Source: a bacterium
GTDB taxonomy: Bacteria > Patescibacteriota > Minisyncoccia > Moranbacterales > UBA1568
Assembly (NCBI GenBank): GCA_021821305.1
Contig: JAKACP010000001.1
Span: 132,934-196,933, forward strand
Direction of reading: 5' to 3'
Length of the DNA stretch: 64,000 nucleotides
A model generated the notes under the pieces. It was not told the origin of the DNA. It did not search any database and saw only the letters and a program-made list of their open reading frames with translations. This document shows, piece by piece, positions 2,848 through 38,214 of the stretch (position 1 is the first letter of the stretch; each line of letters starts with the position of its first letter). Both the position numbers and the translations under genes were made by a program.

Positions 2848-2917
2848 CATCGCGAGACAAGTCTTGCGGAATGATACCTCTGGGGGGATAATGTACTCGG
2901 AGGGATTTTTTTATTCA

Positions 2918-2969
2918 CCCAGTGAAATAATTCGCTTCGCGAATTCCTGCTTTGCAGGATTTCACGGGG
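2918..2969 (+). ncRNA. conserved three-way-junction palindromic element, copy R1
   Basis: CCCAGTGAAAT / AATTCGCttcGCGAATT / CCTGCtttGCAGG / ATTTCACGGGG. Same architecture as the inverted copy at 22092..22144, with compensatory changes in hairpin A. Ends 9 nt before the 7TM gene ATG. Confidence 0.45.
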
Positions 2970-2978
2970 TAAATCCAT

Positions 2979-3635
2979 ATGGAATACCATCCGTTCATAC
3001 AGTTCGCCGCGGGAGAAGGCGTGCCGATGCAGACCATCGCGCTTCTGCTCATGCTCCCCCTCGTCGCGACCCTCGTCGCGTTCTTCCGGCAGGTCGTCGG
3101 TATCAAGGCGTTCGGCATCTATACGCCGTCGATCGTCACGTTCGCCTTCGTCGCGTTCGATCCGAAGGGATTCAAGTACGGGATCGGGATCTTCTTGGCG
3201 GTCATATTCGTCGGCATGGTATCACGGTATATCCTCAAGCCGTTCCGGCTGCTCTATCTCCCGCGCGTCGCCATCACGCTCTCGCTCATCTCGTTCGTCA
3301 TGTTCGCCATCCTCATCTTCGGCGGCTATTTCCAGCGCACGGGGCTCGCGGCCGTGTCCATCTTCCCGCTCCTCATCATGATCACGCTCGCCGAAAAATT
3401 CGTCGCGGTCCAGATCGAGAAGGGCAACCGGGTCGCGCTCCTGCTCGCCGGCGAGACGCTCGTCATCTCGCTCGTCGGATACGCGCTCGTCAGCTCGTCC
3501 GCGGTGACCCTCACCATGCTCGTCTATCCGTGGCTCGTGCTCCTCGCCATCCCGGTCAATATCATGCTCGGGAAATGGACGGGCCTGCGCCTCGTCGAGT
3601 ATGTCCGTTTCTACAAGATCCTCAGCAAAAAATGA
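2979..3635 (+). CDS. polytopic (6-7 TM) membrane protein, 7TM_transglut-like, partner of RimK-like ATP-grasp ligase systems
   Basis: 218 aa, 6-7 hydrophobic helices, no soluble domain; stop is 4 nt before the ATP-grasp gene start. Family assignment (7TM domain usually fused to an inactive transglutaminase, PF14402-like) is inferred from context plus topology, not from a search. Confidence 0.55.
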   Translation: MEYHPFIQFAAGEGVPMQTIALLLMLPLVATLVAFFRQVVGIKAFGIYTPSIVTFAFVAFDPKGFKYGIGIFLAVIFVGMVSRYILKPFRLLYLPRVAITLSLISFVMFAILIFGGYFQRTGLAAVSIFPLLIMITLAEKFVAVQIEKGNRVALLLAGETLVISLVGYALVSSSAVTLTMLVYPWLVLLAIPVNIMLGKWTGLRLVEYVRFYKILSKK

Positions 3636-21067: not shown

Positions 21068-22039
21068 TTATTGGACCTGGATGTGGATGTGATTCGGTCC
21101 GGAGGAGCAGGGAACGAATTTTCCGCTGTTATCGCAGATGGCGACCGGTCTCTTGCCTGCGTAGGTTCCGGTATTGAGCTTGTTGAATATATCGGCCATC
21201 TGTTGGTATCCTATCCCGCCCGTCGGTACGATATCGACCCCTATTCCTTTGTAGTGGGTGGAGTTCGTCGAGTGGCTTCCTCCCGCGACACTCGTCACGG
21301 TGAATCCGTAACTCGGATTCATTCCTTTGATCGTGGTGGCGAGTTGGGAGAGTCCCGAGGCGATGCCCGGATGGAGAGTGGATTTCCCGTTGCAGAGACT
21401 GGTCGTATTGTTGCATCCCTTATGGCATGTGATCATCTGGTTTCCCGCGGCTGTTTCCTGAATGTTCCCTTTCGGAAGCACCGGGCCCGCGTTTGAACTG
21501 CAACTTGCCGATGTCCCCCAGCTCACGTTGGAAGCGGAGAGGAGGCTCGATGCCGCCGCTTGAGCGGAAGCGATCGGAGGCGCCGGCGTCCCGAAGTCCC
21601 CTGTGGGAGTTCCGCTCGGTTGGGATGGCGTATAGGAAACCGTCCCGCCGACTGCGCTGAACCTCGACAGGTTCAGGTTGACGAGGTCAGGGTTGATCAC
21701 ATTGAGAATGAGGTAGGCGAGGAGCGCCAAGACGAGCCCGATGAGCGCATCGGAGATATATCCCTTTGCCCGGGAGAGGGTCGCGGTGTTTCCGCCGCTC
21801 GTCATGTAGACGAATCCCCCGACGGTGAGCATGAAGAGAGCCGCTATCCCGACGGTCCAGATGCCGAACTTGTATATGCCGCTTACGTAATCCGGAAGCG
21901 TAGTGGCTCCTGTGGCGCCGGGAATCTGCTCGAGCGGGGTATAGGTGAAGCCTTGCCCGAGCGTAGCGGACGGAGCGGCGAAGAGAAATCCGACGAGTAC
22001 TGCGGCGAACACGGACGCGAAGATGGTTCGTGATTTCAT
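21068..22039 (-). CDS. TrbC/VirB2-like two-TM pilin-type N-domain fused to a Cys-rich LAS/M15-like metallopeptidase C-domain
   Basis: Signal peptide plus two TM helices (GIYKFGIWTVGIAALFMLTVGG ... ISDALIGLVLALLAYLILNV). C-terminal STHYKGIGVD (S-x-H-x-x-G-x-G-x-D = H-x6-D) and terminal HIHIQ (H-x-H), as in M15/LAS zinc peptidases. Upstream: TATACT -10 and GGAGGAG RBS. Confidence 0.5.
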   Translation of the reverse strand: MKSRTIFASVFAAVLVGFLFAAPSATLGQGFTYTPLEQIPGATGATTLPDYVSGIYKFGIWTVGIAALFMLTVGGFVYMTSGGNTATLSRAKGYISDALIGLVLALLAYLILNVINPDLVNLNLSRFSAVGGTVSYTPSQPSGTPTGDFGTPAPPIASAQAAASSLLSASNVSWGTSASCSSNAGPVLPKGNIQETAAGNQMITCHKGCNNTTSLCNGKSTLHPGIASGLSQLATTIKGMNPSYGFTVTSVAGGSHSTNSTHYKGIGVDIVPTGGIGYQQMADIFNKLNTGTYAGKRPVAICDNSGKFVPCSSGPNHIHIQVQ

Positions 22040-22084
22040 ATGTTTGTTATTTTTCTCCTCCAGTATAGCGCATTTTCAGCGAAA

Positions 22085-22144
22085 GAAAAAACCCTGTGAA
22101 ATCCTGCTAGGCAGGAATCCGCAGAAGCGGATTATTTCACAGGG
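22085..22144 (-). terminator. nrdAB operon terminator, formed by three-way-junction element copy R2
   Basis: On the minus strand: CCCTGTGAAAT / AATCCGCttctGCGGATT / CCTGCctaGCAGG / ATTTCACAGGG followed by TTTTTTC. Same element as 2918..2969, with covarying base pairs. Confidence 0.55.
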
Positions 22145-22206
22145 TAAATCAAATCCAGAATAAAACCCGGATTTCATTGGATTTATTCCTCATTCGGTAT
22201 TCGTCT

Positions 22207-23265
22207 TCAAAAGTCCCAGCTTCCGTTCATGCTCGAGGATTGGGTATAGTTGACGACCGTCGTCTCGAAGAAATTGCCTTTGTCGGAGTTCGGGTCCTGG
22301 AGCCGATCGAGGTGCTTGTAGGGGTTTTCGACGGCTTCCGGGTAGAGTGGGGCTATTCCGAGCATACCGAGGCGGTTGTTGGCGAGCCACCGCGTGTAGC
22401 TCTGGGTCGTGTCTCCGTTGAGGCCCGGGATACGGTCTCCGAGTATGTGCCTCGACCACTCGATTTCCTGTTTGACGGCCGTGTCCATCATGTCCACGAT
22501 GAGTTTCTCATCGTAGATTTCCGGGAACTCCCGCCGGATCTCGCGGATGAGGTTGGCGAATATCGTGATGTGGGTCAGCTCGTCTCGGCGGATATAGGCG
22601 ATCATGCGACCGGTCGCGAGCATCTTCATGTGATCGACGAGCGTGTCGAAGAACGCGAACCCGTTGTAGAAATAGATCGATTCGAGGAGGAAGTTCGCCA
22701 CGATACCTCGGAAGAACGTCGCATCCGACGGATCGTCGATGAAATCCTGATAAATGGATCCGATGTACTTGTTGCGTTCGAGGAGGATCTTGTCCGTGCG
22801 CCAGAAGTAGTAGATCTCGTCGCGCTCCTCGCTCTCGACGACCGACTCGAGGATGGTGGCGTAGGACTGGGAGTGGATCGCCTCCTGGTAGGCCTGGATC
22901 GAGAGGATGAGGTTGACCTCGGGCGAAGTGACGTAGTCGGAGAAGTGCGGGAGATTCACCGTCTGTATGGAGTCGAGGAAGATGAGGAACGAGAGCACTC
23001 CCTTGTAGGCGCGCTGTTCGTCGTCGGTGAGCTCGGAATGGAACATCCGGGCGTCGTCCTTGAGCCCCGAGACCTTTTCCGGCACCCAGAAATTCCCGAC
23101 CATCACCTGGTAGAGGGATTTCGCCCACGGGTACTTCGTGGTATTGAGGTTGAAGAGCCCCGTGGTCGATCCCTTGATGATGGTGCGGCGTTCCACCTCG
23201 TCGTGCCCCTCCGGATTGAAGATGGCGTTCCGGTGTATTTTTTCAGTCATAGCCCTTGGAGTCAT
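22207..23265 (-). CDS. nrdB: ribonucleotide reductase class I beta subunit
   Basis: Di-iron ligands and radical site in EAIHSQSY...FLLESIYFYNGFAFF...RDELTH; lies downstream of nrdA. Confidence 0.9.
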   Translation of the reverse strand: MTPRAMTEKIHRNAIFNPEGHDEVERRTIIKGSTTGLFNLNTTKYPWAKSLYQVMVGNFWVPEKVSGLKDDARMFHSELTDDEQRAYKGVLSFLIFLDSIQTVNLPHFSDYVTSPEVNLILSIQAYQEAIHSQSYATILESVVESEERDEIYYFWRTDKILLERNKYIGSIYQDFIDDPSDATFFRGIVANFLLESIYFYNGFAFFDTLVDHMKMLATGRMIAYIRRDELTHITIFANLIREIRREFPEIYDEKLIVDMMDTAVKQEIEWSRHILGDRIPGLNGDTTQSYTRWLANNRLGMLGIAPLYPEAVENPYKHLDRLQDPNSDKGNFFETTVVNYTQSSSMNGSWDF

Positions 23266-29012: not shown

Positions 29013-29072
29013 CAAGCGAGGGAAAAAACTGGCAATCGCCAGTTTTTTGTTTATAATTGATGAAGCATGATC

Positions 29073-29094
29073 GGACGATTAGCTCAGTTGGTTA
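29073..29094 (+). pseudogene. tRNA-Val-like 5' fragment (acceptor 5' strand plus D-arm up to GGTTA), interrupted in the D-loop
   Basis: GGACGATTAGCTCAGTTGGTTA matches the first 22 nt of the downstream tRNA-Val (GGGCAATTAGCTCAGTTGGTTA-GAGC). The D-stem 3' strand GAGC reappears only after a 63-nt insert; no anticodon or T arm follows. Confidence 0.45.
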
Positions 29095-29157
29095 CCCGCC
29101 CGAACGACCGGGTCCCCGCCAGAATGACTCTGTCGGGCTGGGTCCGGTCGGGCGGGG
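29095..29157 (+). repeat. GC-rich palindromic element (CCCGCCCGAACG...CGGGCGGGG) inserted in the tRNA-like D-loop
   Basis: CCCGCCCGAACGACCGGGTCC ... GGGTCCGGTCGGGCGGGG: imperfect long inverted repeat. Shares the CCCGCCCGAACG/CGGGCGGG core with the elements at 37983..38018 and 38145..38180. Confidence 0.5.
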
Positions 29158-29191
29158 AGCATCTCATTTTCCCGCCATACAGTGAAACTTT

Positions 29192-29265
29192 GGGCAATTA
29201 GCTCAGTTGGTTAGAGCGCCTCGTTTACACCGAGGAAGTCGGAGGTTCGAGTCCTCCATTGCCCA
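29192..29265 (+). tRNA. tRNA-Val(TAC)
   Basis: Acceptor GGGCAAT/ATTGCCC; anticodon stem CCTCG/CGAGG with loop TTTACAC; T-arm GGAGGTTCGAGTCCTCC. Confidence 0.85.
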
Positions 29266-29449
29266 CAGGCGAAAAGAATGACTCAAAATAAATGCACATC
29301 ATGCGGAGAGTTCTGGAGCAGGCACCATTGATTTTTTCCGCTGATACGATACAATAGCTCCTGTATCAGCAAGAGCCTGTTGAGAAAGTCTCTTTCGTCG
29401 CAATTCCCGGATTGCAGCAGAATACGGACTTTTTCAACAGACTCTCAGA

Positions 29450-34752: not shown

Positions 34753-34884
34753 TGATTTGACTACCCGAAGTGTTATCTATGGTATATCGAATCGTTTCTT
34801 CCGTCAATTTTGTTTTACAGAGTGTGGGCCGCTTTTATGATTAAAATATATTAAACAATAAATAATATAAAATGTCAAGTATAT

Positions 34885-35540
34885 TGTTCCACGTGGAACA
34901 TTACACTCTTGTCTTTACGATTGCCAGTTACTCAGATTCAATTTGATATTGTTCCACGTGGAACAATTCTATCGCGACTTTTCTTTGAAGATGTATAAAA
35001 GAAGGACGTGCAAATGTTCCACGTGGAACAAATGTTTTTATATGCGTTGAGTTAAAATGTTCCACGTGGAACATTCTTATGAACATCCATAGATCAGTTC
35101 GGCTCATTCTTAATTGTTCCACGTGGAACAATTGGTCGATATTTTTTTGTGCCTTAAATAAAGAAATTGGTTAATTGTTCGCTTCAAGATAAAGATCATC
35201 GGCATAATGTTCCACGTGGAACAAATATTCAAATAAAAGAAATCGACTCCCAATACCTTAAATTGTTCCACGTGGAACAATTTATTCCTACTCTCTCATC
35301 CATATTAAATTCAAAAACACAAAATGTTCCACGTGGAACATTTTTGTAATATTAAAAACCAGGATATGTTCCACGTGGAACAATTAAGAGAATTTGTTTA
35401 CAACGTCACCTTTCATATGGATTTTGTTCCACGTGGAACAAAATCAGGGAATTCTTAAATCCCTAGAGATCTGCATGTCCGTCACAATGTTCCACGTGGA
35501 ACATTGTTGCTCCTGGGCGCCTTATGTTCCACGTGGAACA
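34885..35540. repeat. array of 12 perfect 16-bp palindromes TGTTCCACGTGGAACA (symmetric parS-like sites) in an AT-rich intergenic region
   Basis: Exact copies start at 34885, 34950, 35015, 35058, 35115, 35208, 35264, 35325, 35367, 35425, 35488, 35525; spacing 37-93 bp. Several extend to 20-26-bp palindromes (e.g. TAAATTGTTCCACGTGGAACAATTTA at 35259..35284). A degenerate half-site lies at 35171..35180. Differs from B. subtilis parS TGTTCCACGTGAAACA by one base. Confidence 0.9.
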
Positions 35541-35555
35541 ATCTTGATAGATATA

Positions 35556-38018: not shown

Positions 38019-38042
38019 AGTGACTTTTTCCCGTATGCTTTG

Positions 38043-38116
38043 TGGGCGACACAAGATTCGAACTTGTGACCTCCACAATGTCAATGTGGCGCTCTAACCA
38101 ACTGAGCTAGTCGCCC
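38043..38116 (-). tRNA. tRNA-Val(GAC)
   Basis: Minus strand: acceptor GGGCGAC/GTCGCCC; anticodon stem CCACA/TGTGG with loop TTGACAT; T-arm ACAAGTTCGAATCTTGT. Confidence 0.85.
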
Positions 38117-38144
38117 ACAAAGCATGGGATCAATGTTGTGAGGC

Positions 38145-38180
38145 TCCCCGCTCGTACCGAACGGTACGTTCGGGCGGGTA
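38145..38180. repeat. GC-rich palindromic repeat, second direct copy; on the minus strand it is inserted in the D-loop of a tRNA 5' fragment
   Basis: CCCCGCTCGTACCGAACGGTACGTTCGGGCGGGTAACC; two substitutions relative to 37983..38018. Confidence 0.6.
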
Positions 38181-38200
38181 ACCAGCTGAGCTAATCACCC
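38179..38200 (-). pseudogene. tRNA-Val-like 5' fragment, minus strand (GGGTGATTAGCTCAGCTGGTTA)
   Basis: Matches the first 22 nt of tRNA-Val(GAC) (GGGCGACTAGCTCAGTTGGTTA) with 3 substitutions. Followed on the minus strand by the GC palindrome, then GAGC, then ~29 nt to the intact tRNA. Same layout as 29073..29265. Confidence 0.45.
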
Positions 38201-38214
38201 GATTTCGTACCCGA

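Follow-up and report, generated by a model that had tools for sequence, protein, structure and literature searches.

Short, ORF-less and dispersed repeats with terminal inverted repeats and a folded palindromic shape are represented in bacteria by MITEs (miniature inverted-repeat transposable elements, e.g., Correia/NEMIS, ERIC, and RUP) and by Rickettsia palindromic elements. Their presence or absence differs between relatives, they can land in 3' UTRs and act on transcripts, and some, like Rickettsia palindromic elements, insert in frame in genes. In turn, REP/REPIN elements, which are associated with RAYT transposases, consist of two palindromic units in inverted orientation around a spacer; they occur in many copies per genome with few or no copies of the enzyme gene and are intergenic, often next to terminators (PMC3116915, PMC3337134). 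Free-standing GIY-YIG homing endonuclease genes (I-TevI or Seg type) share the GIY-YIG catalytic domain with the UPF0213/YhbQ/YazA proteins, which are grouped with Slx1 (PMC7017083), a structure-specific nuclease for branched DNA (PMC7017083, PMC8287910). Mobile elements of roughly 50–60 nt are also known from fungal and sponge mitochondria (PMC10085805, PMC2800124). These double-hairpin and repetitive hairpin elements fold into two adjacent hairpins and are found in intergenic regions and genes.

Here, we analyzed a 64-kb stretch of DNA (64,000 nucleotides, hereafter the window), in which a preliminary description had proposed a three-way-junction RNA acting as the nrdAB terminator, with a second copy and a compensated base pair taken as evidence of selection on the fold. 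We found that the observation holds, as both copies, the fold and the compensated pair are real. The interpretation is supported only in part, since the element is not a dedicated or conserved nrdAB terminator RNA, but most probably a recently inserted copy of a small mobile repeat of a very large family. It resembles MITEs, but is much smaller (about 60 nt), its interior is not conserved across lineages, its arms are identical across phyla, and the related ORF-bearing unit encodes a GIY-YIG nuclease and not a DDE or HUH transposase. As for REP/REPIN elements, these are species-specific, whereas the arms described here are shared by unrelated phyla, carry no GTAG or CGTC tag, and enclose an enzyme gene which overlaps one of them and is not of the IS200/IS605-like Y1 type. 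The mitochondrial elements show a resemblance of form only: they are organellar, have no conserved flanking arms and share no sequence with this family.

The element downstream of nrdB and its second copy

Copy 1 lies on the minus strand at 22149..22091 and consists of a complete left arm, A-TTTACCCT-GTGAAAT (22149–22134), palindrome A, AATCCGC-ttct-GCGGATT (22133–22116), palindrome B, CCTGC-cta-GCAGG (22115–22103), and a right arm, ATTTCAC-A-GGG-T (22102–22091), which is truncated, as the outer RAA of the family consensus is missing. The 11-bp closing stem is followed directly by TTTTTT-C-TTTC (22091–22081), 58 nt after the nrdB stop codon (TGA, 22209–22207). Both nrdB and nrdA were confirmed by Pfam (for nrdB, Ribonuc_red_sm, E = 2e-72). 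The true start of nrdB (22207..23265, minus strand) is probably about 5 codons inside this ORF, as homologs are 347 aa long. Copy 2, with both arms complete, is located on the plus strand at 2913..2974 and has the same module order: A-TTCACCCA-GTGAAAT, AATTCGC-ttc-GCGAATT, CCTGC-ttt-GCAGG, and ATTTCAC-G-GGG-TAAAT. Relative to copy 1 it carries a C-G to T-A double change in hairpin A and different loops. Three details had been missed in the preliminary description: the closing stem of copy 2 has an A.G mismatch, copy 2 is not followed by a T-run, and the element extends 4–5 nt further out (TTYA.../...TRAA).

The bracketing pattern GTGAAAT-N25-50-ATTTCAC occurs twice in the window against 0.01 expected by chance. 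RNAfold returns the three-way junction as the minimum-free-energy structure of both copies (z = -6.5 for copy 1 and -4.5 for copy 2), and a covariance model, an approach which had been named in advance as a check, finds only these two copies in the window, at 75 and 69 bits. Comparison against Rfam of the whole window, of the locus at E <= 10, of the full-length unit described below and of 8 related loci gave no family: nothing reached the gathering score and nothing credible appeared at E <= 10. Hammerhead and other small ribozymes were rejected by eye because there are no unpaired core nucleotides, CRISPR repeats because the copies are isolated, and the attC core, dif/Xer sites, NrdR boxes, and CRP and Rex sites were likewise considered and rejected.

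We next examined the orthologous loci of five close relatives (L176–L180; 87–95% NrdB identity), an examination of relatives having been proposed beforehand as a test of the RNA reading. NrdB homologs place the window in Candidatus Moraniibacteriota, and the relatives keep the gene order sodA-nrdA-nrdB-pilin-like gene, yet none of them has the element. L176 (95% identity) reads AATCCGGGC-ta-GCTCGGATT followed by TTTTTTCTTTC, then a TATACT box and the ATG. Equivalent plain hairpin terminators are present in L177 (AAATCCGGC-tcat-GCCGGATTT), L178, and L179, where T-rich tracts follow the hairpin, while L180 is T-rich further downstream. The window keeps the T-tract TTTTTTCTTTC (22081..22091) in full, but about 30 nt downstream of the nrdB stop codon retains only a decayed, positionally equivalent remnant of the hairpin, AAATCC-gggttttattct-GGATTT (22174–22151), followed by GA; the element sits exactly between the two. 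The TATACT sequence (22067–22062), a -10-like box of the downstream pilin-like gene (21068–22039, ATG at 22039), is conserved in all relatives, an assignment resting on sequence only. The simplest history is a recent insertion into the terminator, and the T-run that made the element look like a terminator is ancestral and not part of it. The counts fit a duplication of GGATTT followed by loss of 7 nt, which would have brought the closing stem up against the T-tract, but this reconstruction is speculative.

Copy 2 is also lineage-specific. It lies 4 nt before a start codon and immediately downstream of a ruvC terminator-like hairpin (CCTCTG...CGGAGG) plus T7 (2877..2912, plus strand). The same hairpin and T-run are present in L201, L202, and L203, the ruvC loci of relatives, which are empty; absence was read at the orthologous ruvC-7TM_transglut spacer of L201 (94% RuvC identity) and L203 (83%). 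Here, copy 2 replaces 40 nt of native spacer and is not a clean insertion.

As an intrinsic terminator, copy 1 shows a stable stem ending directly at a U-tract downstream of a stop codon, and local terminator activity is therefore plausible. Yet, its loop is a 31-nt branch of two hairpins and not a short loop of about 3–10 nt, for which reason a consensus terminator scan does not call it; transcript ends were not mapped. REP- and MITE-type repeats are reported to attenuate transcription in other bacteria. Nevertheless, a structured RNA selected as the terminator or 3'-end stabilizer of nrdAB seems very unlikely given the empty loci of the relatives and the behavior of the family.

Distribution and behavior of the repeat family

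A scan of species-representative genomes with a pattern that left hairpin A free returned 55 loci, of which about 38 are true relatives. They come from several Cloacimonadota MAGs (many copies per MAG), Moraniibacteriota and other Patescibacteria, Bdellovibrionales, and Bacteroidales. A metagenome scan that fixed only the arms yielded at least 120 loci, whereas no copy was found in viral contigs. In total, more than 150 copies were retrieved. In about 150 non-redundant copies the 15–16-nt arms are invariant, R-TTYACCCY-GTGAAAT on the left and its inverted partner ATTTCAC-R-GGGTRAA on the right, and information content falls to zero beyond position -9. The interior, in turn, shares no sequence between lineages and is usually composed of two short perfect palindromes: of 150 interiors, 95 fold as two hairpins and 52 as one. 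Loops of 3 nt account for 144 of 242 loops, most commonly in the contexts GC-TTT-GC, GC-AAA-GC, and GC-GAA-GC.

The preliminary description would have been refuted had only two copies existed without covariation in relatives, and this is not the case. On a model-guided alignment of about 150 relatives, all ten pairs of the two inner hairpins show changes on both sides and 98% of cells are paired, so that the compensated pair is real and general. However, only 0–2 sequences per pair carry a G.U among about 120 sequences, which is the signature of perfect DNA palindromes and not of an RNA, which tolerates wobble pairs. The two imperfect positions between the arms (-1 and -6, usually mismatched) were examined for a strand-specific G.U (T.G) pattern and do not favor one strand. 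One arm is TTC and the other TTT in 84 of 147 elements; this asymmetry is not tied to the orientation of the interior and flips between the two window copies.

Neighboring genes are unrelated housekeeping or accessory genes, and all-against-all clustering of ORFs in 153 loci found no recurrent protein family, the most frequent cluster covering 6 loci. With a crude gene caller, copies were found to lie in tandem (66), convergent (16), and divergent (14) spacers, and arm polarity shows no bias relative to transcription (19 sense against 23 antisense). Most family members, like copy 2, have no U-tract. Copies occur abutting or in tandem (loci L094, L099) and nested one inside another (L021), an inverted pair flanks an AbiEii-like module (L098/L106), and copies also lie inside genes, including two 57-nt in-frame copies in an RHS/YD-repeat gene.

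Each arm is itself a near-palindrome (TTCAC-CCY-GTGAA), which a closing stem does not require. This 13–17-bp symmetry (ATTTCAC-N3-GTGAAAT), the resemblance of the half-sites to parS (TGTTTCAC/GTGAAACA), and weak covariance-model hits on the parS-like array at 34.9–35.5 kb of the window could suggest a pair of operators or ParB/Noc-like binding sites forming a stem only as a by-product. We consider this improbable, as the center triplets are always in inverted order (CCY...RGG), arm spacing ranges from 3 to 280 nt, there is no association with particular genes, presence is polymorphic between close relatives, and the right arm is coding sequence in the full-length units. Even less likely is an integron-type attC or another folded single-strand site for a tyrosine recombinase. 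Paired boxes with fixed mismatches at -1 and -6, a variable terminal structure and cassette-like spacing in L105 and L002 recall attC design, but the core RYYYAAC/GTTRRRY is absent, no integrase recurs nearby, orientation is not uniform, and elements flank housekeeping genes.

The family thus shows the terminal inverted repeats, small size, lack of ORF, many dispersed copies, and presence or absence at orthologous sites expected of MITEs. Flanking direct repeats of at least 5 nt occur in 31 of 160 copies against 4.1 in permutations, and of at least 6 nt in 16 against 1.5 (e.g., AGGGACGG, ATCTGTGT, and AGTTATAA). Yet, they are seen in only about 20% of copies, with variable length and boundary, and in neither window copy, which does not settle whether a target-site duplication is formed.

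The nuclease gene of long-interior members

Interiors range from 3 to about 280 nt, and the long ones encode an 84–87-aa GIY-YIG nuclease of the UPF0213/YhbQ/Slx1 type (PF01541, E = 1.3e-17, residues 1–71 of 84). The full-length unit, of about 285–300 bp, comprises the left arm, 13–35 nt, and the nuclease gene, whose last codons, TAT-TTC/TTA/TTG-ACN-GGG-TAA/TGA, are the right arm. Five independent lineages carry both arms (L172, L094, L116, L181/182, where L181 stems from a complete Moraniibacteriota genome, and L183–190). In all of them the ORF ends in KSY-F/L-T-G-stop, and the R of GGGTRAA is the second base of the stop codon. Of 120 close homologs, 103 end in SY[F/L]xG. The arms change together with the F/L codon: TTC (F) goes with GTGAAAT and ATTTCAC, TTA (L) with GTTAAAT and ATTTAAC, and TTG (L) with GTCAAAT and ATTTGAC, while a neighboring paralog has a fourth pair, GTGTAAT with ATTACAC. 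Short twin-hairpin copies exist for the first three of these arm types.

The proteins are about 75–89% identical between Moraniibacteriota, Bacteroidales, and Prolixibacteraceae, and the gene family counts 6212 clusters at 50% identity with E <= 1e-3 and 936 with E <= 1e-10. No hit was obtained in the plasmid or phage collections at 1e-8. The closest solved structures are the uncharacterized UPF0213 proteins BH0048 and EF2693 (1zg2 and 1ywl), although identity is low (E = 3e-6) and the C-terminal KSY[F/L]TG tail is specific to this subfamily. We found no report that YhbQ-type genes are mobile or carry inverted arms.

On one Bacteroidales contig (L205/L206), two identical copies of the unit sit at the same codon (LTDQI|RSSR) of two paralogous 23S_rRNA_IVP genes, and the identical block comprises 280 nt of upstream flank plus the unit and ends exactly at the end of the right arm. 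This same-site occupancy, seen in that related locus and not in the window, looks like homing with one-sided co-conversion, as for free-standing homing endonuclease genes; cleavage of the empty target site was not assayed. In contrast to the latter, only the catalytic domain is present, without a separate DNA-binding domain, the unit is bracketed by inverted arms and, in this view, spawns ORF-less derivatives and also inserts at non-homologous sites such as the nrdB terminator. Identical GIY-YIG proteins (P0121 and P0221) occupy the same context in many samples and hence do not show mobility.

Origin of the repeats and implications

Taken together, the element is best read as a non-autonomous, MITE-like derivative of a GIY-YIG element, possibly co-opted locally as a terminator. 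What our data show, and what we hold with fair confidence, is the membership of both window copies in the GIY-YIG-linked family, the link of the arms to the nuclease gene and their co-variation with its codon, the absence of both copies, two recent insertions of a dispersed repeat, from close relatives, and the position of copy 1 between the remnant of the old nrdB hairpin and that terminator's own T-tract. The remainder is inferred. The GIY-YIG protein, probably as a dimer or as a structure-specific enzyme, would recognize the arms, either as a palindromic duplex or as the hairpin, cruciform or three-way junction they form, and cut there, driving spread by homing into similar sequences and occasionally by ectopic insertion with short flanking duplications; short copies would use the enzyme in trans. 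The Slx1 relationship fits such a substrate. We regard this nuclease-driven mobility as about as likely as not. No experiment or computation in this analysis shows that the protein cuts the arms or moves anything, and GIY-YIG nucleases are hydrolytic and not known to perform strand transfer, so the integration step is unexplained. Similarly balanced is our view that, with the displaced hairpin decayed, the closing stem abutting the native U-tract substitutes for it in terminating or stabilizing the nrdAB transcript, which would be a secondary, local by-product of insertion.

Several findings speak against this reading. No GIY-YIG gene lies in the window, none was found in about 240 kb of Cloacimonadota loci rich in short copies, and the interiors of short copies are unrelated to the nuclease gene, so they are not simple deletion derivatives. 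An ORF-bearing partner with the same ends does exist, but its product is not a recognized transposase, which leaves undecided whether it is the autonomous partner expected of a MITE. Alternatively, a RAYT/HUH, DDE or tyrosine recombinase encoded elsewhere might mobilize a REPIN-like repeat, the GIY-YIG genes being cargo or a frequent target. The two inverted palindromic arms around a spacer, the direct repeats of 5–8 nt typical of staggered-cut transposases, the lack of known DNA integration by GIY-YIG enzymes, and a short copy interrupting a GIY-YIG gene (L122) speak for this. However, cargo would not show a right arm formed by the conserved C-terminal codons and stop of the gene in five independent lineages with a co-varying left arm, no transposase-like or HUH-type family recurs in the 153 loci, and the REP tags are absent. 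We thus consider this alternative unlikely.

No description of GIY-YIG units with inverted arms, or of their ORF-less derivatives in bacteria, was found in the literature, a large MITE survey included, although coverage was incomplete and prior description is not excluded. It is possible, with a substantial chance that nonetheless falls short of even, that these repeats are the non-autonomous members of a previously unrecognized class of very small bacterial selfish elements, the autonomous form being a unit of about 285 bp with 15-bp inverted arms around a single 84-aa Slx1/YhbQ-like GIY-YIG nuclease gene whose stop codon lies inside one arm. In this reading, the nuclease cuts the palindromic, hairpin or three-way-junction form of its own arms and so drives both homing and ectopic insertion, which would be a mobility mechanism outside the known DDE, HUH, serine, tyrosine, and Cas1 classes.

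For the nrdB locus, the apparently exotic terminator is best seen as an insertion into an ordinary one, and Term-seq-style expectations and RNA-motif claims should be tempered accordingly. More broadly, the family is a highly abundant repeat with sequence-identical ends shared by candidate-phyla-radiation bacteria, Cloacimonadota, Bacteroidales, and Bdellovibrionales, and tied to the smallest conceivable enzyme gene. It offers a marker for recent insertion events in uncultured, streamlined genomes. If the nuclease drives mobility, this is a new way for DNA to move, which would explain an abundant repeat in CPR bacteria, Cloacimonadota, and Bacteroidota, provide a compact, structure- or palindrome-specific nuclease with a defined natural substrate, and assign a biological role to part of the uncharacterized UPF0213/YhbQ (COG2827) family.

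A parS-like palindrome array and an inverted tRNA repeat

We found that an AT-rich spacer of about 1 kb in the window contains twelve perfect copies of the 16-nt palindrome TGTTCCACGTGGAACA (34885-35540), positioned at irregular intervals of 37-93 nt, against 0.01 expected by chance. The sequence is nearly the Bacillus parS consensus; thus, the region looks like a centromere-like parS cluster or an iteron array. The neighbors include two tRNA genes and genes encoding a TSP3-repeat protein and a dCTP deaminase, while no dnaA or parB gene was seen nearby. The covariance model built for the mobile element gives weak hits (E from 2e-5 to 0.2) on pairs of these parS-like palindromes (34881-35544), whose half-sites (GTTCCAC/GTGGAAC) resemble the arm half-sites of the element (ATTTCAC/GTGAAAT). 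The tRNA cluster and the parS-like array are bracketed by an inverted repeat (29070-29267 and 38041-38203), in which a tRNA gene (29192-29265, plus strand) and its upstream 37 nt recur in inverted orientation about 8.8 kb away (38043-38116, minus strand). The arms are 77% and 92% complementary, and this could be an invertible or duplicated segment.

Borders of the elements, empty sites and paired copies

In some family members, short tandem or direct repeats sit immediately outside the arms, as observed at locus L021 (5217-5290) and in Cloacimonadota loci such as L026 and L001. Examples are (AAAGTCGG)x5 in a Moranbacteria genome, GTTCGTGnnn repeats, and ATCAGT on both sides in Cloacimonadota. 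These sequences resemble the outer arm and might be slippage or repeated nicking at the element border. The empty ruvC-downstream spacer of the relatives L201 (about 3000-3015) and L203, orthologous to the window at about 2913, contains TTTTCAGGGGAAC, which resembles a degenerate right arm (ATTTCACGGGGTAA). The site may therefore have been occupied before, yet the resemblance could also be coincidence. At loci L098 (1805-4419) and L106 (2814-5429), two complete elements with an unstructured AT-rich interior are found in inverted orientation around a 2.5-kb module encoding an AbiEii-like nucleotidyltransferase and a TrmB-like protein; this arrangement resembles a composite or invertible unit.

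Insertion sites of GIY-YIG units and short copies

At loci L205 and L206, which belong to one 12.9-kb contig, and L208 (1320-2480), identical GIY-YIG units are inserted at the same codon of two paralogous 23S_rRNA_IVP genes. Sequence identity covers 280 nt upstream and stops exactly at the right arm. A second, different GIY-YIG unit with its own arm type is inserted 260 nt downstream in the same gene. At locus L172 (5340-7370), four family members lie within 2 kb of one RHS/YD-repeat gene: an intact GIY-YIG unit splitting the ORF at a GW|KGVN motif, a decayed GIY-YIG unit, and two 57-nt short copies that stay in frame. Two of the four sit at homologous YI(H/Y) motifs of different repeats, which suggests a target preference that includes TTYAC.
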